Of a stretch of 64,000 nt of DNA, positions 5,269 to 56,509 are shown piece by piece. The notes beneath the pieces are model-generated. The model saw only the letters and a program-made list of their open reading frames with translations. It was not told the DNA's origin and did no database searches. Source of the DNA: Candidatus Bathyarchaeia archaeon (GTDB lineage Archaea; Thermoproteota; Bathyarchaeia; Bathyarchaeales; Bathycorpusculaceae); contig JBHGBG010000001.1 in the NCBI GenBank assembly GCA_041946875.1, forward strand, positions 10,996 to 74,995, given 5' to 3'. Positions within the stretch are counted from its first letter, which is position 1; each line of letters opens with the position of its first letter. The position numbers and the translations under genes were made by a program.

Positions 5269-6267
5269 ATGGCACTCAAATTTGGAATTGAATTCGTTCC
5301 AAAAGACCCCTACTGGAAACTAGCTGCGTACGCGATTCAAGCTGAGAACCGCGGGTTCAGCAACCTCTGGGTGACCGACCACTACGGCAACCGCAACGTC
5401 TACGTCACTCTAGCAGCCGCGGCCATGTACACGAATAAGATTACGTTCGGCACGGGCGTAACCAACCCCTGGATGGTCAACCCAGTCATAACCGCACAGG
5501 CTATCGCCACGCTGAACGAGCTGGCGCCAGGCAGAGTGGTTCTGGGCATGGGCGCCGGCGACAAGACTACTCTTGAAGCGGTTGGCGTGGAAATGGGTAA
5601 GCCACTCGCCGCCGTAAAAGAAGCCATAGAATTGTTCCGCAAATTGACCGCGGGCGAAACCGTGGCTTATCAGGGCGAAGTGTTCAAGACTGCGGGCGCC
5701 AAATTCAACTTCAAGACGAAGAACAAGATTCCCGTCTACGTCGGCGCTCAAGGTCCAAAGATGCTGGAGATGGCTGGAAAAATCGGGGACGGCGTCTTGG
5801 TCAACGCAAGCCATCCGAGCGACATAGGCTACGCCGTCAAAATGGCCGGCGAAGGCATGAAGCAAGCAGGTAAATCGGCAGCGGACGTGGACATCGCGGC
5901 GTACACCTCGTTCAGTATAAACGAGGACCCGAAGAAAGCCGTGAAAGCCGCCTTGCCAGTTGTCGCCTTCATCGTTGCGGGAAGCCCACCGCCCGTCCTC
6001 GAGAAGCACGGAATCAGCCCGGGAAAAGCTGACGAAATCCGCGCAGCCCTCAAGGTCGGCGATTTCCCGAAAGCATTGGGCGCGGTTACTCCCGAGATGA
6101 TAAACGCCTTCTCCATCAGCGGCACGCCCGACGTTTGCATCGAGAAAATCACGGAGCTGAAGAAAATCGGCATCAGCCAATTCGTCGTCGGCTCGCCCAT
6201 AGGCACGAACGTCAAAGCCGCCATAGACCTCATCGGCGCGAAGATTATTCCGCACTTCAAGGAGTAA
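5269..6267 (+). CDS. mer: F420-dependent 5,10-methylenetetrahydromethanopterin reductase (Mer), LLM-class oxidoreductase
   Basis: GGAGG ribosome-binding site upstream. Near full-length resemblance to Mer: KFGIEFVP, VTDHY.NR, GTGVTNP, GMGAGDK, YVGAQGPKMLEMAG, VAFIVAGSPP, FSISGTPD. Confidence 0.85.
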   Translation: MALKFGIEFVPKDPYWKLAAYAIQAENRGFSNLWVTDHYGNRNVYVTLAAAAMYTNKITFGTGVTNPWMVNPVITAQAIATLNELAPGRVVLGMGAGDKTTLEAVGVEMGKPLAAVKEAIELFRKLTAGETVAYQGEVFKTAGAKFNFKTKNKIPVYVGAQGPKMLEMAGKIGDGVLVNASHPSDIGYAVKMAGEGMKQAGKSAADVDIAAYTSFSINEDPKKAVKAALPVVAFIVAGSPPPVLEKHGISPGKADEIRAALKVGDFPKALGAVTPEMINAFSISGTPDVCIEKITELKKIGISQFVVGSPIGTNVKAAIDLIGAKIIPHFKE

Positions 6268-17798: not shown

Positions 17799-18341
17799 AT
17801 GAACTTCTGGAAAGACCTCCCAGCGGGAGACAACCCACCGCTGCTGTTGAACATGGTGGTCGAGGTCACAAGCGGCTCCAGAGACAAATACGAGTACAGC
17901 ACCAAATGGGAAGCCTTCGTCCTCGACAGAATCATCCCCTCATCAGTCGTTTTCCCCGTCGAATACGGGTTCGTCCCCCAAACCTGGTTCGACGACGGCG
18001 ACCCCATGGACATCATGGTCCTCAGCTTCGAACCCCTACAAGTAGGCGCCGTAGTCAAGGTCAGAGTAATAGGCGCGCTCATCATCGAAGACGAAGCCGG
18101 ACTCGACGCAAAAGTCCTGTCCGTCCTCGTGAACGACGCAAGGTTCGAGGGCTACCACGACATAAGCGACATCCACCAGCACCAGCTCAAAGAGATTCAG
18201 GAATTCTTCGAAACCTACAAGCGCCTAGAGCCCCACAAATGGGCAAAGGCGAAGGAATGGAAAAACGCCAAAGAAGCTGGGAAACTCGTCGAATACGCCA
18301 TGGAGAAGTACCGCAAACTAGACAAAGAGCATCTCGAATAA
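17799..18341 (+). CDS. ppa: Inorganic pyrophosphatase
   Basis: VVEVTSGSRDKYEY and YGFVPQTWFDDGDPMDIMVL are canonical family I PPase motifs. Confidence 0.9.
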   Translation: MNFWKDLPAGDNPPLLLNMVVEVTSGSRDKYEYSTKWEAFVLDRIIPSSVVFPVEYGFVPQTWFDDGDPMDIMVLSFEPLQVGAVVKVRVIGALIIEDEAGLDAKVLSVLVNDARFEGYHDISDIHQHQLKEIQEFFETYKRLEPHKWAKAKEWKNAKEAGKLVEYAMEKYRKLDKEHLE

Positions 18342-18363
18342 CCTGCGCAGACTCTTCTGCCGT

Positions 18364-18840
18364 CTACTTCTGGGTCTTCTTGCCCAGGTCCTTCTCCATC
18401 GCCTTAGCTAAGAGCTTCCAGGCTTGGGCGTCGTCTTTGCACAGCTTGTCTGCCAGCTGTTTGACTTCTGCTTCGCTCATCTTCTTCTCGTACTCGAGCT
18501 GAAGACCAGTGAAACTCAAACGCGAGGCTTTCCCGCCGACCGCCCGAATCGCGTAGAGAAACTGCGAGTACTTATAAGGACCCGCCAGGTGCGTGGAGAC
18601 CCAGAACAGCTGGTTAGGGTACAACTGCACGAGTTTCTGCTTCTCGACTTTTGAACCGCCAACGAGAAAAGCATCCGTCAGAATCACCGTGCTGTCGGTC
18701 AGCCAGTTGATTTGCCTTTCGGCGCCGACTTCGCCCATGAGCGCGTGGTCGCTTGGGTCGTAGTCGGTGCACCACTCGTATGCCTTGCGAGCGGGAACTG
18801 AGAAGCGTTGAGTGAAGTGGTAACGGATTGGACACGGCAT
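18364..18840 (-). CDS. Hypothetical protein, possibly SRPBCC/START-like
   Basis: 158-aa clean ORF. The fold guess is weak and rests on the N-terminal pattern (F.VPARKAYEWCTDYDP). Confidence 0.4.
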   Translation of the reverse strand: MPCPIRYHFTQRFSVPARKAYEWCTDYDPSDHALMGEVGAERQINWLTDSTVILTDAFLVGGSKVEKQKLVQLYPNQLFWVSTHLAGPYKYSQFLYAIRAVGGKASRLSFTGLQLEYEKKMSEAEVKQLADKLCKDDAQAWKLLAKAMEKDLGKKTQK

Positions 18841-18905
18841 GGAAACTCACCTGCCTCAAACTGCGTGGAACGGTTATATTACACTTGCGCCGCGCCCATC
18901 GAGGG

Positions 18906-20252
18906 TCAGCTGGAGCGGAAGTAGTCGGTCAGCCTCTTCTGGAACAGCAGGTTCCTCAGCATGTGACCCTGAACAATCCACTGGTGCATAGGAATCTCGA
19001 ACCGGCCGCTGATGAACTTCAACGCCTCGTTCAGCGTCCTAAACTGGAAAGGCTTCTGACGCATGGCATTCCGCACATTCTCCCTTACTTGCCAAACGCC
19101 CACGGGCATGATGTAGCCGGGTCGGGCTTCGCGCAGAACGACGACGGTTGCCTGCCTGCGTTCCTTCACAAGTTGCTCGCACACCGCAAGCCTCGCCGAG
19201 TAGTAGCATCCGCCAATCTGCGCGTACGTGGTTCTGCCGTCGTTGCCTTCCCAGTCGGAGTAAATCTCCACCGTTGCCCCGTTCGGGTTCCAAACTGTGC
19301 CGGGGTACCAGGCTTCCATAGACTCGTAGCTCCACTGCGCTGGGACCATGAGAATCTCGAACACGTTGTCCAAGTAGATGGACTCGTACACGCGGAACTC
19401 GTTGATTTCGGGAAAAGTCTTCACCTGCTCCACAAGGCCTTTGCCGATGATGTCGTCAACCGCGGTGATGCTCCAGCGTGTGGGCACGAGGCGACGCTTC
19501 TTCTCCAGTCCGAAGGCGCCGACGCTGAAGGCTTTCTGAATCTTCGTGACCATGACGCCGCTCTTGTACAAGTCCAGCACCGCGGGCTGAGCCTTCAAGT
19601 CCGTATCGTAATAAGCCTTCTCCACGTGATGATCAAACCTCGCGTCTCCCACGTGCAAGTCCCGAATTGGCGCGGAGGGACCGAAAGGCTGCACTTCAGC
19701 GTCCATGAAAATCGAGCCGCGAGGCTTCTTCGTCAGGTTTAACTCGATGTCCACGCTGTTCTCCGCCAGAGCCAACTCCCGCGTCTGCTCCACGATTTTC
19801 CCTGCCTGCGTGAACGCCTGCACATGGACGCGGTGCTTGCCGCGAACGAGGAGACTGCGGAACCCGACGATTTCGTCTATGGTCTTTCCGAACCACCGCT
19901 CGGGCAAGTCGAACAGCGAAGTATCCTCTTGAACGGGCGGAACGAGCGGTCCAGCGTAGACGTAAGGATAGCCGATTCTGCCGATGAACACACTGGGAGG
20001 CGAAACCCCGTCGATGTCCTCGCTAAACATGAGGGGCACGCTGCGCAGGTAGCTGTTGACCTTGACCATGATGGGGCAGCGGGTTTTTCCGCACAGGTTT
20101 CGGGCGCCCTTACAGAGAACGCAGAGGCTACTCTGCCGGGCACGGGTTGTTATCTGCCGCTCTTCCACGGCGGCGCTGTTGACCTGCCTGATGACGTTGA
20201 GTAGCCAGTTGTCGCCCGAAGAGGCAGAACCGCGAACCTGAGTCTGAATCAT
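18906..20252 (-). CDS. Nre-family (COG1602, DUF650/DUF651) putative DNA-repair protein
   Basis: Cys motif LCVLCKGARNLCGKTRCP followed by GVSPPSVFIGRIGYPYV, which I recognise from archaeal NreA-like proteins. Confidence 0.55.
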   Translation of the reverse strand: MIQTQVRGSASSGDNWLLNVIRQVNSAAVEERQITTRARQSSLCVLCKGARNLCGKTRCPIMVKVNSYLRSVPLMFSEDIDGVSPPSVFIGRIGYPYVYAGPLVPPVQEDTSLFDLPERWFGKTIDEIVGFRSLLVRGKHRVHVQAFTQAGKIVEQTRELALAENSVDIELNLTKKPRGSIFMDAEVQPFGPSAPIRDLHVGDARFDHHVEKAYYDTDLKAQPAVLDLYKSGVMVTKIQKAFSVGAFGLEKKRRLVPTRWSITAVDDIIGKGLVEQVKTFPEINEFRVYESIYLDNVFEILMVPAQWSYESMEAWYPGTVWNPNGATVEIYSDWEGNDGRTTYAQIGGCYYSARLAVCEQLVKERRQATVVVLREARPGYIMPVGVWQVRENVRNAMRQKPFQFRTLNEALKFISGRFEIPMHQWIVQGHMLRNLLFQKRLTDYFRSS

Positions 20253-20392
20253 CGCTAATTCTGGTGAGGCTTGCTCTCATATGTTTTCTGCACGCAAAAA
20301 GCTCAAAACAACATAACCCCTCAAGCTTCAAGAAGCACGGAGAAAAACAGAAGCTTTTTCTTCACGGACCGTCTTGTCGAAGAACGAGCAGC

Positions 20393-21166
20393 ATGAAGGA
20401 AGAAACTGAAAGCTTCATCAAAGGTTACGTCAAGGCTTGCAGGTCAAAGGTGCCCACCGCTACAAGCTGGGAAGAACCCTTGGTAGCCTTCGCAGACGCC
20501 CAGGACCCCTTGTTCCCGAGGCTCAAACAACTCGTGGATGCCCAGCACTTCCTGCCCGCGGACCTGCAGGCTGACGCAAAGACGGTCGTTTCCTACTTTC
20601 TTCCGTTCACAAGAGAAACCACGTTGAGCAACGCGCGGGGCAGAGGCGCCTCGGAGCAGTGGGCAAAATCCTACGTCGAAACCAACCAGCTGATCACAAA
20701 CCTCAGCAAAGCTATCTGCGAAATGCTGGAGCAGCACGGGTTCAGAGGAGCAGTAACATTGCCGACTCACAACTTTGACGAAGAAAAACTCGTCTCCAAC
20801 TGGTCTCAGAAGCATGTAGCTTACATCGCGGGCTTGGGCACGTTCGGACTGCACAGCATGATAATCACCGAGAAGGGCTGCTGCGGCAGACTCGGAAGCA
20901 TAGTCACAAACGCAGAAATCACACCCACCCAAAGGAGTGCAAAGGAGTTCTGCCTGTTCAAACTGGACGGCTCATGCGGAGCATGCGTCAAGAAATGCAG
21001 ACCGAAAGCTCTCAAAGCAGACTCTCTGGACAAGCGGGCGTGTTATGAGGAATGCCTTACAAACGCCAGAAAGTACGCGGCGCTCGGGTTGGCCGACGTG
21101 TGCGGGAAATGCGTGGTCAACGTTCCGTGCAGCTTCACAAACCCCTCCAGAGCTGCGAAAACCTGA
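20393..21166 (+). CDS. QueG/reductive-dehalogenase-superfamily-like Fe-S protein
   Basis: AGLGTFGLHSMIITEKGCCGRLGSIVT resembles the QueG core, and C-terminal cysteine clusters (CGACVKKC, CGKCVVNVPC) follow. Start chosen at the internal ATG at 20393. Confidence 0.45.
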   Translation: MKEETESFIKGYVKACRSKVPTATSWEEPLVAFADAQDPLFPRLKQLVDAQHFLPADLQADAKTVVSYFLPFTRETTLSNARGRGASEQWAKSYVETNQLITNLSKAICEMLEQHGFRGAVTLPTHNFDEEKLVSNWSQKHVAYIAGLGTFGLHSMIITEKGCCGRLGSIVTNAEITPTQRSAKEFCLFKLDGSCGACVKKCRPKALKADSLDKRACYEECLTNARKYAALGLADVCGKCVVNVPCSFTNPSRAAKT

Positions 21167-21245
21167 CCAAGACAATCCTACGTTCCGATAGGCTTCGGTT
21201 GCAAGAAAGGCTTAAAGCCCCAGCATGGTCTTGGCTTAGACTCAA

Positions 21246-22172
21246 GTGGAAAACTTGGACGCAAACCTCTTAGGCAACTCAGCCGCGATTCTTACCGCGT
21301 TCCTGTGGACCGGCAGCTCCATCCTGTTCACCTCCGCAGGCAAGCGAATGAGTTTCTTCAGCGTCAACGCCTTCCGCTCCGCCATCACAGTCGGCATGCT
21401 CGCCCTCGCCCATGTTGTCCTACTGGGCTATGTTCTGCCTGCTGCCAGCGGCGAGCAGTGGTTCTGGATGGGGTTGAGCGGCATCGTGGGGCTGGGCATC
21501 GGCGACTTCGGCTTGTTTGCCGCCTACATCCTAATTGGTCCGAGGCGAGCGCTTCTGATAATGGCTTCCTCGCCCATCTTCGCGTCCGTCGGCGCCTTCC
21601 TCATGCTCGACGAAACGTTTCCGGCACTTGCCATTCTTGGAGTGGCGGTTACGTTGATGGGCATAGTTGTGGTCTTGCTGGAAAGGGAAAACGGCACGGA
21701 ACAACCAACCGACGGAAGCAAGCGCAAGGCTTGGGGGCTGTTTGCCGCCACCGTCGCCGCGGCGGGTCAGGGAATCGGCTTGGTGCTCTCCAAACAAGGA
21801 ATGTACGTCGGAGGAGAAGTAGCCATGAACCCCGTGTCGGCAGCCCTGATTCGGATGATGATTGCTACGGTGTTCGTGTGGGTCGCCGCATTGCTGTTCA
21901 AGAAACTGCCTGAACTGCGCAAAACGGCGAAAGACAGAGAGGGCTTGAAGTTTGTTTCTGGCGGCGCCCTGATTGGGCCTTTCCTGGGTATGACACTCTC
22001 CCTGCTCGCGGTGTCTTACACGGAGGCGGGCATTGCTCAGACGCTGCTCTCGCTGGAGCCGCTGATTATCATCCCGCTCATGTGGTTGCTGTATCGCGAG
22101 CGGACGAACTGGCGAGGAATCCTCGGAGCCGTCTTAGCCGTAGTCGGCGTGACAATCTTAATGCTGACTTGA
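21246..22172 (+). CDS. DMT-superfamily (EamA) transporter
   Basis: Ten TM helices arranged as two EamA-like halves. Confidence 0.75.
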   Translation: MENLDANLLGNSAAILTAFLWTGSSILFTSAGKRMSFFSVNAFRSAITVGMLALAHVVLLGYVLPAASGEQWFWMGLSGIVGLGIGDFGLFAAYILIGPRRALLIMASSPIFASVGAFLMLDETFPALAILGVAVTLMGIVVVLLERENGTEQPTDGSKRKAWGLFAATVAAAGQGIGLVLSKQGMYVGGEVAMNPVSAALIRMMIATVFVWVAALLFKKLPELRKTAKDREGLKFVSGGALIGPFLGMTLSLLAVSYTEAGIAQTLLSLEPLIIIPLMWLLYRERTNWRGILGAVLAVVGVTILMLT

Positions 22173-22267
22173 AGCTGAAGTCTTCTTTGGAAACGGCGGA
22201 TGCGGCTGTGCGGTGAAACCGCAAGGTTTAAACGCTTTTCGCAGAAACTATTGTTTGGTGTTTTGAT

Positions 22268-22546
22268 ATGGAAAAATCCAGTCAGAAATATTTCTCAATG
22301 ATAAAACTAGGTCCAGCGGGCGCAGGAAAACTGTACGCTGCAGTCATGAAGTGGAAAGAAAAACCAATCGACGGCGTCAAGCTTGAAGAAGCCTACCAAG
22401 TGTTTGGCAAGTGGGATTTCGCCATTCTGTTCGAGGCGGACACAAATGAGAACGCACTTCACTTCGTCGGCGACGTTGTGCGACCCATTGAAGGCGTGGC
22501 TTCGATGAAGACAACGCCCATTTCGCCGATTAGAAAATGGCGCTGA
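22268..22546 (+). CDS. Stand-alone Lrp/AsnC ligand-binding (RAM-like) domain protein
   Basis: 92 aa. VFGKWDFAILFEADTNE...IEGV..T.T resembles the AsnC_trans_reg effector domain. There is no HTH. Confidence 0.4.
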   Translation: MEKSSQKYFSMIKLGPAGAGKLYAAVMKWKEKPIDGVKLEEAYQVFGKWDFAILFEADTNENALHFVGDVVRPIEGVASMKTTPISPIRKWR

Positions 22547-22588
22547 ACCTGAGCATTCTTTTTCTTGTTTTCCTCAAAAGGAGTAGAG

Positions 22589-22695
22589 TGGCGCCCAGGC
22601 CGGGATTCGGACCCGGGTCCTGCGGGCGACAGCCGCATATACTGCTCCGGCAACATGAAAGAACTCATGTTGAGACCGGACTATACTACCTGGGC
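22589..22695 (-). tRNA. tRNA-Asp (anticodon GUC) with a 29-nt non-canonical intron in the D-loop; CCA encoded
   Basis: The minus strand reads GCCCAGG UA GUAU AGUCCGGUCU [CAACATGAGTTCTTTCATGTTGCCGGAGC] A GUAU A UGCGG CUGUCGC CCGCA GGAC CCGGG UCCGAAU CCCGG CCUGGGC G CCA. The cloverleaf closes only after the 29 nt at 22644-22672 are removed. The intron contains a perfect 8-bp hairpin (CAACATGA/TCATGTTG). Confidence 0.8.
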
Positions 22696-22721
22696 AGTTC
22701 GTTTCGTGCAGAATCTCTCTC

Positions 22722-23654
22722 TTATTCAGACATATAAAGATACTTTTTGCCCGTGATGCTTTCAAAGCGCTTTGCGTGTTTTTGATTGTGGAAACCAATA
22801 GATTTGGCGAATTTATCAACTTCCCTTCTTGCATACAGACCGCATTTTGGCGAAGGCGTGTCAGACCATTTACTAGGCTTGAAGCCAAGTTGCAGAAGAC
22901 CTCGTCTGTATGTTTCCTGAATTCCTTTAATCTTAGAGGTTAGTTCCAACTGGGGCATGCTTCGATTGGAAGATTTGGGGAAAACTGTTCCGTCGGTGTC
23001 AAACAATCCTCTTATGCATGACTTAAGATAAGAATTATTCTCAAAAATCCATGACGGTATGCCTACATTTTGCTTTTTCTTGTTCCCAGGCTTGAGTCCG
23101 TAGTATTCCAACGTAAATACTAAATTCTTGTCATTGACATAAAACATCACAGCCCTTGCAGTCTTAAGTCTGAAACTCTTGAGTGGTTGTCCTAGAACTC
23201 TTGAGAACAACGGAGAAACAAAGGACTCAAGATATTTCCAGTCGTCTTCACCTCCACATATCCTTGCGGCATATTGTCCAGACTCGGAAGAGTCATCAAG
23301 ATGGCCATCACCTAGAATCACACCAATGATTTCAGCCAAGTCACTAGATTTTTCGCAAAGAAGTTTAACCCTCTTTGGCTTTCCGCCTCCACCGGTGACA
23401 CCTCCTTTCTTTTGCCCCCAGTTGGACTTTACCAGTCCAACCACATCGCTGTCGCATTCTTCCTCGGAAATAGCACACAATTGTTTGAATGTTGAGAAGG
23501 AAAGCGTGCATTCCCCATTTCTTAATTCATGACAGAGGTAGTGTGGGTTAAGACCGAACTGCAATGCTAATTCCGCCCACGATAAGCCGGTTTTCGCTTT
23601 CGCTTTTTCAATTAACTTTTTTTGTTTTTCCCTGGGGAGTTTTACTCTTTGCAT
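22722..23654 (-). CDS. Free-standing double-motif LAGLIDADG homing endonuclease with N-terminal HTH
   Basis: Two LAGLIDADG motifs (LAEIIGVILGDGHL and LKSCIRGLFDTDGTV) and an N-terminal HTH-like segment (TGLSWAELALQFGLNPHYL). Confidence 0.8.
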   Translation of the reverse strand: MQRVKLPREKQKKLIEKAKAKTGLSWAELALQFGLNPHYLCHELRNGECTLSFSTFKQLCAISEEECDSDVVGLVKSNWGQKKGGVTGGGGKPKRVKLLCEKSSDLAEIIGVILGDGHLDDSSESGQYAARICGGEDDWKYLESFVSPLFSRVLGQPLKSFRLKTARAVMFYVNDKNLVFTLEYYGLKPGNKKKQNVGIPSWIFENNSYLKSCIRGLFDTDGTVFPKSSNRSMPQLELTSKIKGIQETYRRGLLQLGFKPSKWSDTPSPKCGLYARREVDKFAKSIGFHNQKHAKRFESITGKKYLYMSE

Positions 23655-23847
23655 TTAATTGTCATCTTTTATTAATTTATAGAAATAGCTACACTACTTA
23701 AACCTTACCACGTCCATTCCTCTAGATGGCTGCAAGCGATACTTCTATTTTGAACAGCCATTGCAATTAAGTAACCACGGACTGAAAGCTGCGTAATGCT
23801 TAAAAGGAAATGATACGGAAATACGAACTGTACAGGAGGCCAAAATA

Positions 23848-24498
23848 ATGGCAGACTATCCTTGGACGCTAAAAACCAGCGCACTTGAAGACTTTCTTAA
23901 GAAAATGTCCACAAGACCCGAACCTGCAAGGGTCACGCAAGAGTTTTTGAAATCTTTGGGTTATACGAGCAGCAACGATTGGCAGACGATACCTATCCTC
24001 AAGTTTTCAAAGTTTCTTGACGCAAACGGTAATCCGACTGAATTCTATAGGAACTTCAGAGACACGAGCAAAGCAAAAGCAGTTATGGCACAAGCAATAC
24101 GAGAGAGTTACTCGGAATTGTTTTTGGCTCATGCAGCTCCTTGGCAAGCGAGCGATGTGGACTTAGAGAATTTCTTTCGGACAAAAACAGGCAGAGGCGA
24201 AAGGATGTTACGTGCAACAGTTGGAACATTCAAGGAACTGTGCCAATTTGCGGATTTTGGAGCCGCACCAATCCAAATGCAGCCTTCTTTGCAACAGGCA
24301 AACGCAACAGTCACAACGTTATCAACAGCTAGTGCGCAACCCCCAACAATTCATTTGCCAATTACAAGAGAAGGTGGAGTAAATTTGAACGTTGACATAA
24401 GACTTGAACTGCCTGCCACACAGGACGCGAGCGTCTATGACAAAATCTTCGAGTCTCTCAAGAAACACCTTCTCAACCCAAACTCAAAAGCAGATTGA
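23848..24498 (+). CDS. DUF5343-like protein
   Basis: YPWTLKTSALEDFLKKM....P.RVTQEFLKSLGYTSSND...ILKFSKFLD..GNPTEFYRNFR.....KAVMAQAIRESYSELF matches my memory of the DUF5343 family pattern. The C-terminal tail is NVDIRLELPATQDASVYDKIFESLKKHL. Confidence 0.55.
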   Translation: MADYPWTLKTSALEDFLKKMSTRPEPARVTQEFLKSLGYTSSNDWQTIPILKFSKFLDANGNPTEFYRNFRDTSKAKAVMAQAIRESYSELFLAHAAPWQASDVDLENFFRTKTGRGERMLRATVGTFKELCQFADFGAAPIQMQPSLQQANATVTTLSTASAQPPTIHLPITREGGVNLNVDIRLELPATQDASVYDKIFESLKKHLLNPNSKAD

Positions 24499-25036
24499 GA
24501 ATATTCTAAGAGAAGTGTCCAGTTTCAAGACAGAAGCAGATGGTATCCTAATCAAGTTTAAGCCCGTCACTCCTCCGAAAGAGCCAGCGCAAATCCTTGA
24601 GAATCTGTTTTTGAGGTTTCATATCGTGGCAAAGCAACTTCAAAAGAGGCAAAGAAACCGACAACCACTTGAAATAAATGATGAATATGATGTCCAAGAT
24701 TTGTTACATGGGCTTCTCAAAATATTTTTTGATGACGTTAGACCTGAAGAGTACTGTCCGAGCTATGCTGGAACATCTCCTCGTGTTGATTTCTACCTCA
24801 AAAAGGAGCAAATTCTAGTTGAAGCGAAAATGGCAAGCACAAACCATCGTAAGAAGAAAGTTGCCGAGGAGCTAGTTCTAGACAAAGAGTATTATCGCAA
24901 GAAAGAAGGATGTCAAGCGATGTACGCGTTGGTTTACGAGCCTGAAGAAGTGATATCAAATCCCCGTGGTTTTGAAAGCGATTTATGTGAAAAGAGAGAA
25001 AACTTCGAAGCAAGGTTTTTTGTGGTTTCAAAGTAG
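24437..25036 (+). CDS. PD-(D/E)XK-like nuclease-fold protein (start uncertain)
   Basis: DEYDVQDLLHGLL...RPEE...SPRVDFYLKKEQILVEAKM gives a D...(D/E)xK arrangement. The ORF overlaps the upstream gene. Possible starts are ATG 24404 or 24437, or GTG near 24515. Confidence 0.5.
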   Translation: MTKSSSLSRNTFSTQTQKQIENILREVSSFKTEADGILIKFKPVTPPKEPAQILENLFLRFHIVAKQLQKRQRNRQPLEINDEYDVQDLLHGLLKIFFDDVRPEEYCPSYAGTSPRVDFYLKKEQILVEAKMASTNHRKKKVAEELVLDKEYYRKKEGCQAMYALVYEPEEVISNPRGFESDLCEKRENFEARFFVVSK

Positions 25037-25055
25037 TGAAAAACGGTAGTCGCTT

Positions 25056-25088
25056 GCATAATACTAGACCGGACTATACTACCTGGGC
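25056..25088 (-). repeat. Partial, intron-less tRNA-Asp 5' fragment (distal att-like repeat)
   Basis: The minus strand reads GCCCAGGTAGTATAGTCCGGTCT-AGTATTATGC. This is exon 1 joined directly to an exon-2-like sequence (spliced tRNA: ...GGTCT-AGTATATGC). Confidence 0.7.
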
Positions 25089-25125
25089 TCCTAAAGCGTA
25101 GAACAATACTGACTTCCTCCACTAA

Positions 25126-25626
25126 TTAACTTTTCTCGGACGCGTTCAGGGTTTCGGGTTTTTGGTGCTGCTTGCCCGTCATGCAGTGGATGTGGATTTT
25201 GCCCATGGTAGTCTTGGCGAGTTTCTCAGGTTTTATCTTCGCCAGTTTCTCTTCTGGCTTCGCTGACAACTGCCGAACAATGACTTCAATAGCATGCCGC
25301 TTCTCTGCAGCGTCTTCGATGAGGCTGAATTTTCCGGCGAAGTGGACGCTGGTATAGGCGTAGTCGCATTCGTCGGTGACACCGTAGTCATGCACTGCCT
25401 GCCCCCAGACTTTGGTGTTTGATTTCAGGAAAATGAGCTTCTTGCCCTCGGAGGCACAGTGAAAGTACAAGCAGTTGTTTTCTTTGTCGTAGCCGTGACT
25501 CAGCGACACGAGGTAAGGCTCGTTGTCCATGCTCATGGCGATTGTGACGTACTTGGTAGATTTCAAGACGTTTTGCATGGTTTCGCGGTCGGTTATTTCT
25601 CGGTCCCTGCGTCTAACGTGAAACAT
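25126..25626 (-). CDS. Pyridoxamine 5'-phosphate oxidase family (FMN-binding split barrel) protein
   Basis: MFHVRRRDREITDRETMQNVL....YVTIAMS.DNEPY.V.LS.......LYFH.A..G.K is the typical PNPOx-like N-terminus. Confidence 0.7.
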   Translation of the reverse strand: MFHVRRRDREITDRETMQNVLKSTKYVTIAMSMDNEPYLVSLSHGYDKENNCLYFHCASEGKKLIFLKSNTKVWGQAVHDYGVTDECDYAYTSVHFAGKFSLIEDAAEKRHAIEVIVRQLSAKPEEKLAKIKPEKLAKTTMGKIHIHCMTGKQHQKPETLNASEKS

Positions 25627-28732: not shown

Positions 28733-29017
28733 AAGTGCGCCATCGGTTTGCCATCTGCATTGGGCTTTCTCAGAATGGCCCCAGAAAAGGCTGAGGATTC
28801 CTCTCTGGCTCTCACCTCCCGGCAAGCTCATGCAGTTTCACCTGCCGAAAACTGCAGAAGGCTGTGCCTGAAGAACCCTCACGAAATTTAGAAATTTACC
28901 AATTCACAGATTTTTTAACAAGACAAATTTCAGAAAAAAGGATGCTTGCAAGACTGCAAATCTGACTTTTTTGGACCCACACAATAGCATATCATCTTTG
29001 CTTGAATTCTGTCGAGT

Positions 29018-29704
29018 CTATCCTTGGGCTTCTTCCGTATACAATCGAACTTTCACTTTCGCTGGTACTCTTCCTCGGTTCTCCATAATCAGATACCATG
29101 ACCCTTTTCGCGGTGTCACGTAGTCTATTTCGGTTTCTAAAACTCCTTCGTTGCAATCTTCAGATTCGAAATCCCTGTTACCTGTCCAATCTTCGAAGTT
29201 TAACCAATCCACAAAATAGACATCAATAGGATTGTCTGAGACTATTTTTCCTTTCAGGTGGTCATCTTTCATTAGTCTAAACTCGTAGGAATAGCCGTCA
29301 GATGGTTTCACGACGATTGTTTCTTTACGAATAAATGCTTTCTTTTCTGCTTGGCTGCTCTGTGGGTGTTCTTCTTTTTTTGAAGCTACAGTAATACTGA
29401 CCTTTGATTGATCATGTGCCATTACTTGAATCCCAGAGGATTTTTTCTGTATTTGTTTGTTATGCGAATCCGAACTATCTTCGTCTTTCCCAATGTTCTT
29501 GAAAAACCGGACGGCAATTTCCCCTATTGAATCTGGTTTCAATAAACACCCGGCTCCCAGTCCGCCAACAAAAATAGCTAGGACCCACATCACTACAGAG
29601 GTTAGGTTTAACCCCATGCTGATCGCGGAAACCAAGAATATTGGAAAAGCAATCATTAAACAAGTCAAACCAGTGACGTAACTATCTCTTCTTTTCTTGT
29701 CCAT
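29018..29704 (-). CDS. Hypothetical membrane-anchored protein (two N-terminal TM helices plus a soluble C-terminal domain)
   Basis: Low-GC ORF. The C-terminal segment VYFVDWLNFEDWTGNRDFE...PRKGSWYLIMENRG...KVKVRL loosely recalls the DUF1883 pattern; this is a weak call from memory only. Confidence 0.45.
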   Translation of the reverse strand: MDKKRRDSYVTGLTCLMIAFPIFLVSAISMGLNLTSVVMWVLAIFVGGLGAGCLLKPDSIGEIAVRFFKNIGKDEDSSDSHNKQIQKKSSGIQVMAHDQSKVSITVASKKEEHPQSSQAEKKAFIRKETIVVKPSDGYSYEFRLMKDDHLKGKIVSDNPIDVYFVDWLNFEDWTGNRDFESEDCNEGVLETEIDYVTPRKGSWYLIMENRGRVPAKVKVRLYTEEAQG

Positions 29705-29817
29705 GCATATTCAATTAACATAGGTTGCCTATTTCTTTTGCTCTTCAAAGATAAGACTGAGACAATCCGAATTGTTCACAAAGTCTTAAATCTACTAAGC
29801 GTAGAATAGCCTGAATT

Positions 29818-30708
29818 ATGATGAAATATTCCACCAGAAGGTTATCTTTGCTTATCGTATTCATAACCTTAATAGTGATCACATTTGTTGTTGGCTCTCC
29901 AATTGAAAAAGTGCATTCAGCTTCGTTTAGAATAGCGAGCGGAGAAGTCGAGTTTCAGGATATAGATACTTCTTCAGGAATGGTGTTGCTCCATTTCGTT
30001 TTCGATGAACAAACAGGTTCGGATGACTATAGAGACCGCTCGATGAGTTGGATAATATGGGAATATGGCAAATCGGGAGGTTTCGTATCAACTCCAATAG
30101 GTCCTGCTGACCCTGATTGGAAGTTAATTGGGACGAACAACGACACTAGTTGGAAATGGAGACTTGAGAAAACATTGTGGGCTAACTATCACCACAGTGG
30201 CTTCTTTCCCCTTGAACAGTTTAAGGTAAGTTTCTATGTCTGCTCAAATGAAAGCCGTGGCTTCGAAGTCAGAAGTCTTATTCCTAATTCATTTCCTTCA
30301 ATATTCCAAACGGGGGTAGTTCCTGAGGAAGTTCCTCATAGTTTCAAGTTTGAAGGAGTCCCAGAGCAAATTAGAGTCGATATTTCTTTCGGTCCAGATA
30401 GTATCTCTTCTCTGATAGGAGTAATGCTTTACGTTCTCTTTGGTGTACTCATCGTTCTTTGGGGAGTGCTATTTCAAAGGAGAAGAAGCACTAAACTTGA
30501 ACATTCAATTATGATAACGTCAAGTGTTTTGGTTTTTCTACCCATACTAGTGTTTACCTTTAGAACGTCCATCGCTCCGAAATACCTGATGCCGATTGAC
30601 ATACTGGGATTCTCCGTGATGTTGGTCTTTGGGATTCTGCTCATCTACGAGTTCTACGCAAAAACGAGAACCCCCAGAATGAACTTCGATCCTGGACTAT
30701 ACGATTGA
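29818..30708 (+). CDS. Hypothetical membrane protein (signal anchor, extracytoplasmic domain, three C-terminal TM helices)
   Basis: Low-GC ORF transcribed divergently from 29018..29704. No motif recognised. Confidence 0.45.
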   Translation: MMKYSTRRLSLLIVFITLIVITFVVGSPIEKVHSASFRIASGEVEFQDIDTSSGMVLLHFVFDEQTGSDDYRDRSMSWIIWEYGKSGGFVSTPIGPADPDWKLIGTNNDTSWKWRLEKTLWANYHHSGFFPLEQFKVSFYVCSNESRGFEVRSLIPNSFPSIFQTGVVPEEVPHSFKFEGVPEQIRVDISFGPDSISSLIGVMLYVLFGVLIVLWGVLFQRRRSTKLEHSIMITSSVLVFLPILVFTFRTSIAPKYLMPIDILGFSVMLVFGILLIYEFYAKTRTPRMNFDPGLYD

Positions 30709-30811
30709 ACAGAAATGACAACAGTCTGTGCGCGGCAGACGGAATCTTTGCAGACAAGAATAGAAAACAGATAGCAACGAATTGTCACTTTAGCTGATTT
30801 CATTTCGCTAA

Positions 30812-56407: not shown

Positions 56408-56509
56408 TGGTGGGCCCGGGGAGATTCGGACTCCCGACCAACAGGTCTCTCAGTGCCCTAATAGGCATCTTATGAGCCTGGCGCTCTAACCTAGCTGAGC
56501 TACGGGCCC
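56408..56509 (-). tRNA. tRNA with anticodon CAU (elongator Met or Ile2) and a 24-nt intron at the canonical 37/38 position; CCA encoded
   Basis: The minus strand reads GGGCCCG UA GCUC AGCUAGGUUA GAGC G CCAGG CUCAUA[AGATGCCTATTAGGGCACTGAGAG]A CCUGU UGGUC GGGAG UCCGAAU CUCCC CGGGCCC A CCA. The G1:C72 pair argues against an initiator tRNA. Confidence 0.8.

Follow-up and report, generated by a model that had tools for sequence, protein, structure and literature searches.

Introduction

The origin of non-canonical archaeal tRNA introns and of orphan tRNA halves has been debated ever since the discovery of split and multi-intron tRNAs, and intron transposition, integrase-borne introns, and protection from viruses have all been proposed. 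Here, we analyzed a 64,000-nucleotide (nt) stretch of DNA from a Candidatus Bathyarchaeia archaeon (hereafter, the window), where a tRNA-Asp(GUC) gene with an interrupted D-loop adjoins a low-GC island that encodes a putative LAGLIDADG homing endonuclease. In our interpretation, a free-standing LAGLIDADG cassette probably invaded a single-exon Bathyarchaeia tRNA-Asp gene and rebuilt it. The closest published case, with nearly the same anatomy, is the tRNA-Thr(GGU) gene of Caldiarchaeum subterraneum, where a 5′ fragment (positions 1–27), a 1,868-bp insertion of foreign composition, and a new D-arm intron at 24/25 were found (Sugahara et al. 2012, PMC3293823). Directly upstream of that rebuilt tRNA, on the same strand, lies an 813-bp open reading frame (ORF), ORF 'b' of clone JFF014_A09, which has seven paralogues and was annotated as a putative recombinase from SVMProt only (PMC3293823). 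The authors attributed the intron to a mobile element and assumed attP/attB integration by a pNOB8-type plasmid, leaving the family of the ORF unidentified (PMC3293823). The Caldiarchaeum case is one locus in one population and was modeled as an integrase event, whereas the arrangement described here is a family trait that extends over tRNA-Asp, tRNA-Glu, and tRNA-Gln genes of many archaea, and involves a LAGLIDADG homing endonuclease and no integrase.

Outside the archaea, the yeast WHO elements are LAGLIDADG-type genes located beside FBA1, whose homing replaces the 3′ end of FBA1 with a resistant copy (Coughlan et al. 2020, PMC7282813). The window and at least nine other loci resemble this system in having an endonuclease gene beside its target, one end of the target replaced, and the old end left as a fragment. 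Repeated homing of WHO elements reportedly leaves truncated fragments of the target gene. WHO elements are eukaryotic, encode an intein-derived protein with a zinc finger, act on a protein-coding target, replace its 3′ end, and confer resistance by substitutions; here, in contrast, a protein with helix-turn-helix (HTH) and LAGLIDADG domains is associated with replacement of a tRNA gene's 5′ end, and a spliceable bulge-helix-bulge (BHB) intron is the proposed source of resistance. Neither the Hint domain nor the zinc finger of WHO and HO was detected in the window's protein, where HTH and LAGLIDADG_3 were the only domains found; it is thus an analogue of WHO, not a member. In the cyanophage system that Zeng, Bonocora and Shub are said to have described in 2009, the F-CphI gene lies beside psbA, the target of the enzyme is interrupted by an ORF-less group I intron, and gene and intron spread together. 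That system differs in its phage host, self-splicing group I intron, and endonuclease family, and in having no gene fragment or replacement promoter.

Among archaeal enzymes, I-DmoI and I-Tsp061I, which are associated with BHB introns of rRNA genes, share the fold, host domain, and intron-splicing machinery of the system described here. Their genes lie inside the mobilized introns, whereas here the intron is a 29-nt ORF-less one, the gene is outside the tRNA, and the protein has an additional N-terminal HTH domain. Integrase-type elements (SSV/pNOB8) share the direct repeats of a tRNA segment (23 nt, exact, in the window) but not the recombinase. In the hypothesis of Randau and Soll (2008), as summarized in PMC4090602, tRNA introns protect genes from integrating elements. 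In that summary the intron is a defense of the host against integrases, whereas here it was apparently supplied by the element and would protect the gene that the element rebuilt. A literature search, in which coverage of subscription journals was incomplete, turned up no published case of archaeal tRNA genes preceded by LAGLIDADG genes.

The tRNA-Asp Gene and Its Displaced 5′ End

Read from 22695 to 22589 on the minus strand, the tRNA-Asp gene is GCCCAGGTAGTATAGTCCGGTCT CAACATGAGTTCTTTCATGTTGCCGGAGC AGTATATGCGGCTGTCGCCCGCAGG...GCGCCA. The original prediction held that a cloverleaf forms only upon removal of 29 nt from the D-loop, not from the canonical 37/38 site, and this was borne out on both counts. 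When run with permissive filters, the Rfam tRNA model scored the gene at 45.8 bits (gathering score 29) and placed 34 nt in the D-loop where the consensus has 3. The product lacking the 29 nt is 75 nt long, the same as intronless Bathyarchaeia tRNA-Asp genes (for example, GCCCAGGTAGTATAGTCCGGTCYAGTATATGCGGCTGTCGCCCGCAGG); it begins GCCCAGGTAGTATAGTCCGGTC-CAGTATATGCGG..., forms a standard cloverleaf, and is identical to an allele found among these intronless genes. ARAGORN reported zero tRNAs in the whole window, and Rfam, at its gathering threshold and with filters at default, did not recover the tRNA-Asp gene. Since such tRNAs escape both of these standard searches, tRNA complements of metagenome-assembled genomes (MAGs) are under-called. 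For comparisons across loci, a custom acceptor/T-arm finder was used, because an Rfam E-value run on four loci missed the known intron-containing tRNAs in L103 and L125.

The first 23 nt of the gene, GCCCAGGTAGTATAGTCCGGTCT, occur in exactly two identical copies, at 22673–22695 and 25066–25088; no match of any kind was obtained in 100 shuffles. As had been claimed, the distal copy, GCCCAGGTAGTATAGTCCGGTCTAGTATTATGC, reads as exon 1 joined directly to sequence resembling exon 2, continuing with AGTATTATGC after the 23 nt. An independent assembly, Logan contig L001 (run SRR29307520), covers both repeats and is identical to the window; the arrangement is therefore not an assembly artefact of the window alone. 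A second Logan contig, L002 (window ~18000–22620), breaks inside the tRNA-Asp gene, possibly because repeats or variation in the population made the assembly graph branch there.

A conserved motif, gagaaaaGTTAATTAG, marks the native promoter region of Bathyarchaeia tRNA-Asp genes, ~34 nt before position 1. In the window, the native motif precedes the distal fragment and not the full gene, and it also stands before fragments in L123, L131, L132, L137, L139, and L160. Upstream of the rebuilt tRNA a different motif, aaaaagta(n)aTTTATATg, is found in the window, in L103, and in nine loci of a clade named after its acceptor-stem start, GCCCTGG; this cassette TATA motif may act as the promoter of the rebuilt gene. 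Fragments of 22–43 nt equivalent to that of the window are present in L123, L126, L131, L132, L134, L137 (which has two), L139, and L160. Depending on the locus, their similarity to tRNA ends at 22, 28, 30, 31, 32, 36, or 43 nt, though part of this spread may be due to later decay, and all of them read as intronless tRNA. Since the fragments are intronless and stand behind the native promoter, we conclude that the fragment is the original 5′ end of the invaded gene, and we assign exon 1 together with the intron to the cassette. The intron is thus most likely foreign to the host and arrived with the LAGLIDADG cassette that replaced the front of the gene. This reverses the roles assigned by the original prediction, where the fragment was taken for an att arm of the element mimicking an intronless tRNA-Asp.

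In the clade whose islands have no cargo, positions 1–28 of the fragment are well preserved, and a conserved cassette end, TTGATTCATTGTTTCT, follows at a constant distance. This pattern is expected if, with every round of homing, the recipient supplies a new fragment that extends as far as a break near position 28. In L137, two intronless tRNA-Asp fragments (2856 and 3711), one degenerate (36 nt) and one fresh (28 nt), precede a single endonuclease gene, as would be expected after two rounds of invasion. At L182 (4847 and 5796) the tRNA is an intronless tRNA-Gln, and the D-loop of the fragment is 1 nt shorter than that of the cassette-borne 5′ part. A7 of the L182 fragment forms a Watson–Crick pair with U66 of the resident 3′ half, and G7 of the cassette copy gives a G·U pair; this pairing may be taken as a small hint at a swapped 5′ half.

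The LAGLIDADG Protein and the Island

The free-standing gene beside the tRNA lies outside any intron or intein, and its stop codon is 26 nt before the tRNA. Its 310-amino acid (aa) product matches PF14528 (LAGLIDADG_3) with 38.9 bits (cutoff 22.5) and has two motifs in a single chain, AEIIGVILGDG (D116) and RGLFDTDG (D221); both aspartates are invariant in 32 homologues. An AlphaFold2 (AF2) model (pLDDT 89) had its best matches in the Protein Data Bank (PDB) with I-Tsp061I, I-DmoI, and homing-endonuclease domains of inteins (Foldseek: 2dch, E 5.6e-10, TMt 0.74; I-DmoI, TMt ~0.72), while profile matches in PDB were to intein homing-endonuclease domains and 2dch. WhiA and LAGLIDADG maturases were also among the structural matches. 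We refer to the protein as a putative homing endonuclease with conserved catalytic residues. The search yielded 64 homologues, ~28 of them full-length at 57–72% identity, and the window's own protein is recorded from a Bathyarchaeia MAG. Truncated genes encode residues 98–310 in L139 and 181–310 in L160. A scan of viral_contigs returned only distant LAGLIDADG cores (22–35% identity); family members were absent, and nothing pointed to a viral vehicle.

The island has a GC content of 0.41–0.45, compared to 0.52–0.60 in the flanks, and encodes only three proteins, none with an integrase or recombinase domain. Integrase domains were likewise absent from the related islands examined, including the minimal one (L126), which measures 1,078 bp from fragment to tRNA and contains the endonuclease gene alone. 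A split integrase of the SSV type spanning the island junction was ruled out, since both terminal ORFs end before the repeats. The slot between fragment and endonuclease gene holds cargo that differs among genomes, such as an Mrr_cat protein in L103 (6923–7954, minus strand) or a weakly TIR-like protein in L123 (4731–5750), and the LAGLIDADG gene is the only gene common to related islands. An att/integrase system, of the kind implied by the att arm of the original prediction, therefore does not hold for an island devoid of integrase, with a relative that consists of the LAGLIDADG gene alone.

A second low-GC stretch (window ~28750–30750, GC 0.39–0.42) may be another foreign insertion. No integrase was recognizable in it (28.7–30.7 kb), and its ORFs at 29018–29704 (minus strand) and 29818–30708 (plus strand) had no Pfam match.

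Linkage of Endonuclease Genes and Introns

A pattern scan of species-representative genomes yielded 120 loci, mostly from Bathyarchaeia. When fixed 8-kb blocks around these loci were searched for a second copy of the tRNA 5′ end, one was found in the window's own contig only. Synteny is conserved: a membrane protein gene, PNPOx, and tRNA-Asp are followed by Nre directly or, as in the window, after a few genes. Empty sites are seen in intronless relatives, where ~80 nt separate the end of PNPOx from the tRNA. A search for exact matches to the neighboring PNPOx protein gave none. The presence or absence of the intron in relatives, to which the original prediction had pointed as a check, indeed varies: among 75 tRNA-Asp genes of the Bathyarchaeia type, 69 lack an intron, and the other 6 (L037, L056, L069, L103, L113, L122) are interrupted at the same site of the D-loop. 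The background intron frequency is ~8%. L111, from another lineage, has its insert at a different D-loop site.

The intron and the endonuclease gene are linked. An unbiased GTDB sample contained 61 intronless genes without the endonuclease, 4 intron-containing genes without it, 1 with both, and none that was intronless next to an endonuclease gene; most of the 61 intronless, endonuclease-free species keep the tRNA in the PNPOx/Nre neighborhood. Each genomic context recovered for the close clade has the endonuclease gene beside a tRNA-Asp with the intron (15 of 15 distinct loci: the window, L103, L123/L124, L125/L136, L126–L128/L133, L129, L130, L131, L132, L134, L135, L137, L139, L140, and L160). 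In 14 of these, the tRNA lies directly downstream on the same strand, and in L140 it is inverted. The loci span at least two clades with different introns and neighborhoods (PNPOx/Nre vs. RpoB/NosD). Five intron-containing loci without an endonuclease gene have native promoters and introns homologous to the others.

More distant homologues (30–40% identity) precede tRNA-Glu(UUC/CUC) or tRNA-Gln(CUG/UUG) genes at distances of −9 to +45 nt, and an insert at the equivalent D-loop site is present in most of those Glu genes and in some of the Gln genes. Downstream of distant members in L141, L142, L144, L148, and L149, tRNA-Glu(UUC) is interrupted twice, by an insert in the D-loop and by a canonical intron in the anticodon loop. 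Several further arrangements were noted. In L135 (~5944–6025), the tRNA-Asp that follows the endonuclease gene has the intron but breaks off behind the variable loop, and in L140 (~750–860) the gene beside the inverted intron-containing tRNA-Asp is partial. A tRNA-Lys(UUU) gene in L126 (11267–11359, minus strand) has a 25-nt D-loop insertion with no endonuclease gene adjoining; D-loop introns of this lineage are not confined to tRNA-Asp.

Intron Fold and Predicted Splice Junction

In the minimum-free-energy fold of the 107-nt precursor (z = −3.5), the acceptor, anticodon, and T arms are kept, and the D-loop forms a UCCGG:CCGGA pairing, then a UCU bulge of 3 nt and a hairpin of 9 bp. The intron hairpin of 8 bp and the pairing of UCCGG with CCGGA that had been noticed earlier are thus both recovered. 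A strict BHB had not been drawn in the original prediction; the fold does yield a BHB, with a 4-bp CCGG:CCGG helix between bulges UCU and AGC, and it is kept in 17 other loci. The central helix pairs C17-C17a-G18-G19 with CCGG of the intron, and the inner helix (h′) is 8–9 bp long. Of the outer helix (h), only U16:A21 remains, in a stack close to the D-stem, and the 3′ bulge depends on this pair. Because an alternative pairing of U16 with A gives a 2×3 internal loop, the outer helix must be considered weak and the motif relaxed on that side. When the 18 homologous intron-containing D-arms (the window and 17 loci) were aligned to this structure, 93.3% of cells were paired, a value reached by none of 500 shuffles, while all slid registers gave 59% or less. 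The central helix was paired in 95.8% of cases over these homologues, and in h′ three pairs showed two-sided compensatory changes in at least four sequences. The intron is thus predicted to be removable by the host splicing endonuclease as a BHB intron.

A BHB consists of a 4-bp helix and two 3-nt bulges, and in canonical pre-tRNAs the central helix holds the first two anticodon bases (Yoshihisa review, PMC4090602); an intron at 37/38 is therefore cut after the second base of the bulge. Applied here, this rule predicts that exon 1 ends with GGTC and that the mature D-loop reads ...GGUC-CAGUAU, which puts the intron between D-loop positions 20a and 20b, in the non-canonical class. The GCCCTGG clade, whose first intron base is A or G, is informative: the BHB register gives GGTC-TAGTAT, as in intronless alleles and in the upstream fragments of that clade, whereas a register 1 nt further 3′ gives GGTCA or GGTCG, which is never seen in intronless genes. 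The cleavage rule and the homologous introns thus shift the predicted intron 1 nt in the 5′ direction, to 22673–22645, from 22644–22672 as first proposed. We had also examined the tRNA(CAU) with a canonical intron described below as a calibrator of the cleavage register; it was dropped, since both of its bulges end in A.

The distal fragment had been thought to fix the junction to the nucleotide. It cannot do so, because intronless Bathyarchaeia tRNA-Asp genes have either C or T at position 20b, and the register of the GCCCTGG clade disagrees with the junction it suggests. The T at 22673, the 23rd base of the repeat, would be the first base of the intron, and its match with T20b of the fragment is due solely to the C/T variation at 20b among relatives. 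The claim that repeat identity ends at the junction of exon 1 and intron consequently stands to within 1 nt, but the exact coincidence does not, the 23rd base being intronic.

Proposed Mechanism and Alternatives

In tRNA orientation, the locus consists of the native promoter, old positions 1–28, two defense-like cargo genes, the endonuclease gene, the cassette TATA motif, new exon 1, the 29-nt intron, and the rest of the tRNA. If a LAGLIDADG cassette rebuilt the gene, the enzyme would cut the DNA of intronless tRNA-Asp genes close to position 28, within the region of the D-arm and anticodon stem; the cut is placed there because at this point the well-preserved fragment gives way to cassette sequence. 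Repair of the break would copy the cassette from a donor, using tRNA positions 1–28 and the 3′ exon as homology arms, and the cassette would deliver promoter, exon 1, and intron. Lying 6 nt from the cut, the intron would split the recognition site and render the rebuilt gene immune, while the old fragment would be immune through truncation. The host splicing endonuclease would remove the intron from the RNA, so that the tRNA would still work. If the 22-nt repeats later recombined, or the endonuclease gene decayed, an intron-containing tRNA would remain behind the native promoter. Since intron alleles with native promoters and no endonuclease gene are what a deletion between the repeats would yield, the cassette is a plausible source of non-canonical tRNA introns. 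The truncated endonuclease genes, the double fragment of L137, and the gene-free intron loci all fit a cycle of invasion, decay, and loss.

The classical signature of integrase-type elements, direct repeats of a tRNA 5′ part flanking low-GC DNA, is present at the locus, and the Caldiarchaeum case was published under that interpretation. The island could accordingly be a remnant of a pNOB8/SSV-like element, or of one mobilized in trans, with the repeats as attL/attR and an intron derived from attP or from the host gene. We consider this unlikely. No integrase domain was found in any island examined or in the neighboring low-GC stretch, the sole shared gene being the LAGLIDADG endonuclease, and the repeats, at 22–43 nt, seem not to form a fixed core, though some of this spread may reflect later decay. 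Moreover, an attP mimicking an intronless gene should mostly enter intronless genes, which make up ~92% of relatives, yet none of the 15 rebuilt genes is intronless. It is less probable still that the intron is an old host feature and that the cassette, of independent origin, prefers genes with such introns or is tolerated upstream of them. The five intron-containing loci with native promoters and no endonuclease gene would agree with such a history, but their introns are homologous to those of loci with the gene, cassettes in another context (L126, RpoB/NosD) also carry the intron, and the upstream fragments are intronless in every case, which implies that the invaded genes were intronless.

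A non-mobile role for the HTH-LAGLIDADG protein, as a domesticated factor that is co-inherited with tRNA-Asp, tRNA-Glu, and tRNA-Gln genes and either regulates tRNA transcription like WhiA or aids splicing like a maturase, appears to us the least credible of these alternatives, and very improbable. It would account for the consistent position of the family beside genes of three related tRNAs, many intronless tRNA-Gln genes among them, and for the presence of WhiA and LAGLIDADG maturases among the structural matches. However, unlike WhiA, the family has invariant catalytic acidic residues in both motifs, and some related genomes have the gene while others lack it at a site where synteny is otherwise kept; the foreign GC content of the island, the truncated copies, and the displaced tRNA fragments also speak against this role. 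A splicing helper would also seem superfluous, since BHB introns are not known to need a maturase.

Several observations nevertheless weigh against invasion by a homing cassette. The predicted target site is taken from junction positions only, and fragment lengths vary (22–43 nt). In L125, which has the endonuclease, no recognizable fragment or native promoter was found between the upstream gene and the endonuclease gene, and an empty-site allele from a conspecific of the window's organism was not found. Phylogenetic relatedness among the 15 loci means that 15/15 overstates their independence. Finally, many tRNA-Gln and some tRNA-Glu neighbors of family members have no D-loop intron; the intron is therefore not the sole route to immunity, and the link between family and tRNA might have another basis.

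For the family as a whole we hold, with little better than even confidence, that widespread archaeal HTH-LAGLIDADG cassettes home into tRNA-Asp, tRNA-Glu, and tRNA-Gln genes, replacing the promoter and 5′ part, often with an immunizing BHB mini-intron; that they are a source of non-canonical introns and of orphan fragments after endonuclease loss; and that they ferry defense genes. The idea that the intron is a host barrier disrupting integration was not borne out: exon 1 and the intron sit behind the putative cassette promoter and travel with the endonuclease gene, and the intron is more likely a device of the element. The host-shield view is thereby inverted, with the intron appearing to serve the mobile element. 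The known kinds of elements here are the free-standing homing endonuclease and the BHB intron; their combination suggests a new, testable mechanism of tRNA intron gain. The locus and its relatives point to a testable agent, namely an endonuclease family with a predicted DNA target and a predicted immune allele, and suggest a stepwise path from invasion through endonuclease decay to a leftover intron. They provide a prokaryotic counterpart to yeast WHO/HO-type homing, and the variable defense-like cargo (DUF5343/restriction endonuclease (REase), Mrr-like, and TIR-like) suggests that the cassettes are small carriers of defense genes.

Features of the Locus and Additional Observations

Features of the locus are collected in Table 1. 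The true start of the REase-fold gene is probably downstream of 24404; the Logan gene call is 199 aa long.

Table 1. Coordinates in the window of the island, its genes, and the parts of the tRNA-Asp gene.
Feature	Position	Strand	Basis or remark
DNA inserted relative to the intronless ancestral gene, ~2.42 kb	22639..25060	−	Composition, empty sites; ends ambiguous within repeated 28 nt
tRNA-Asp(GUC) gene, encoded CCA, D-loop interrupted	22589..22695	−	Rfam tRNA, 45.8 bits; D-loop insertion
Exon 1, 22 nt, tRNA positions 1–20a	22674..22695	−	Predicted from BHB register; fragment/gene identity ends after these 22 nt in GCCCTGG-clade loci
D-loop intron, 29 nt, TCAACATGAGTTCTTTCATGTTGCCGGAG	22645..22673	−	Predicted from minimum-free-energy fold, 18 homologous introns, cleavage rule (PMC4090602)
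Exon 2, starts CAGTAT; anticodon GTC, T-arm, CCA	22589..22644	−	Rfam, fold, comparison with intronless genes
BHB bulge 1	22675-22673	−	UCU
BHB central helix, CCGG:CCGG, 4 bp	22679-22676 with 22650-22647	−	Fold
BHB bulge 2	22646-22644	−	AGC
h′ hairpin	22672-22664 with 22659-22651	−	Fold
310-aa protein, N-terminal HTH and double-motif LAGLIDADG homing endonuclease (putative)	22722..23654	−	PF14528, PADLOC HEase, AF2 model
TATA-like box TTTATAT, cassette-borne	22732..22738	−	36 nt upstream of tRNA position 1, 3′ end of endonuclease ORF
Cargo DUF5343 protein, PADLOC candidate defense protein PDC-M34A	23848..24498	+	Pfam 6.6e-37; PADLOC 2e-53
Cargo DpnII/MboI-type restriction-endonuclease-fold protein	24404..25036	+	PF18742 5.5e-46; PADLOC Aga_Helical-REase nuclease domain
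Displaced 5′ fragment of intronless tRNA-Asp, 28 nt	25061..25088	−	Similarity reaches 25056 over a 1-nt insertion
Native host tRNA-Asp promoter motif GTTAATTAG, now driving the fragment alone	25122..25130	−	Same motif and spacing before intronless genes in relatives

A second tRNA gene in the window (56411–56509, minus strand; anticodon CAU) has a canonical 24-nt intron at 37/38; it scores 52.9 bits with Rfam and is missed by ARAGORN. U, as pseudouridine 55, is near-universal at tRNA position 55. At 22600–22616 and 56420–56436, both window tRNAs have the T-loop UCCGAAU, with C at position 55. The same C55 T-arm occurs in more than 120 archaeal tRNA-Asp genes from Bathyarchaeia, Methanosarcinales, and Micrarchaeota (loci L003–L122), and the T-loops of other Bathyarchaeia tRNA-Asp genes read UUCAAAU or UUCGAAU.

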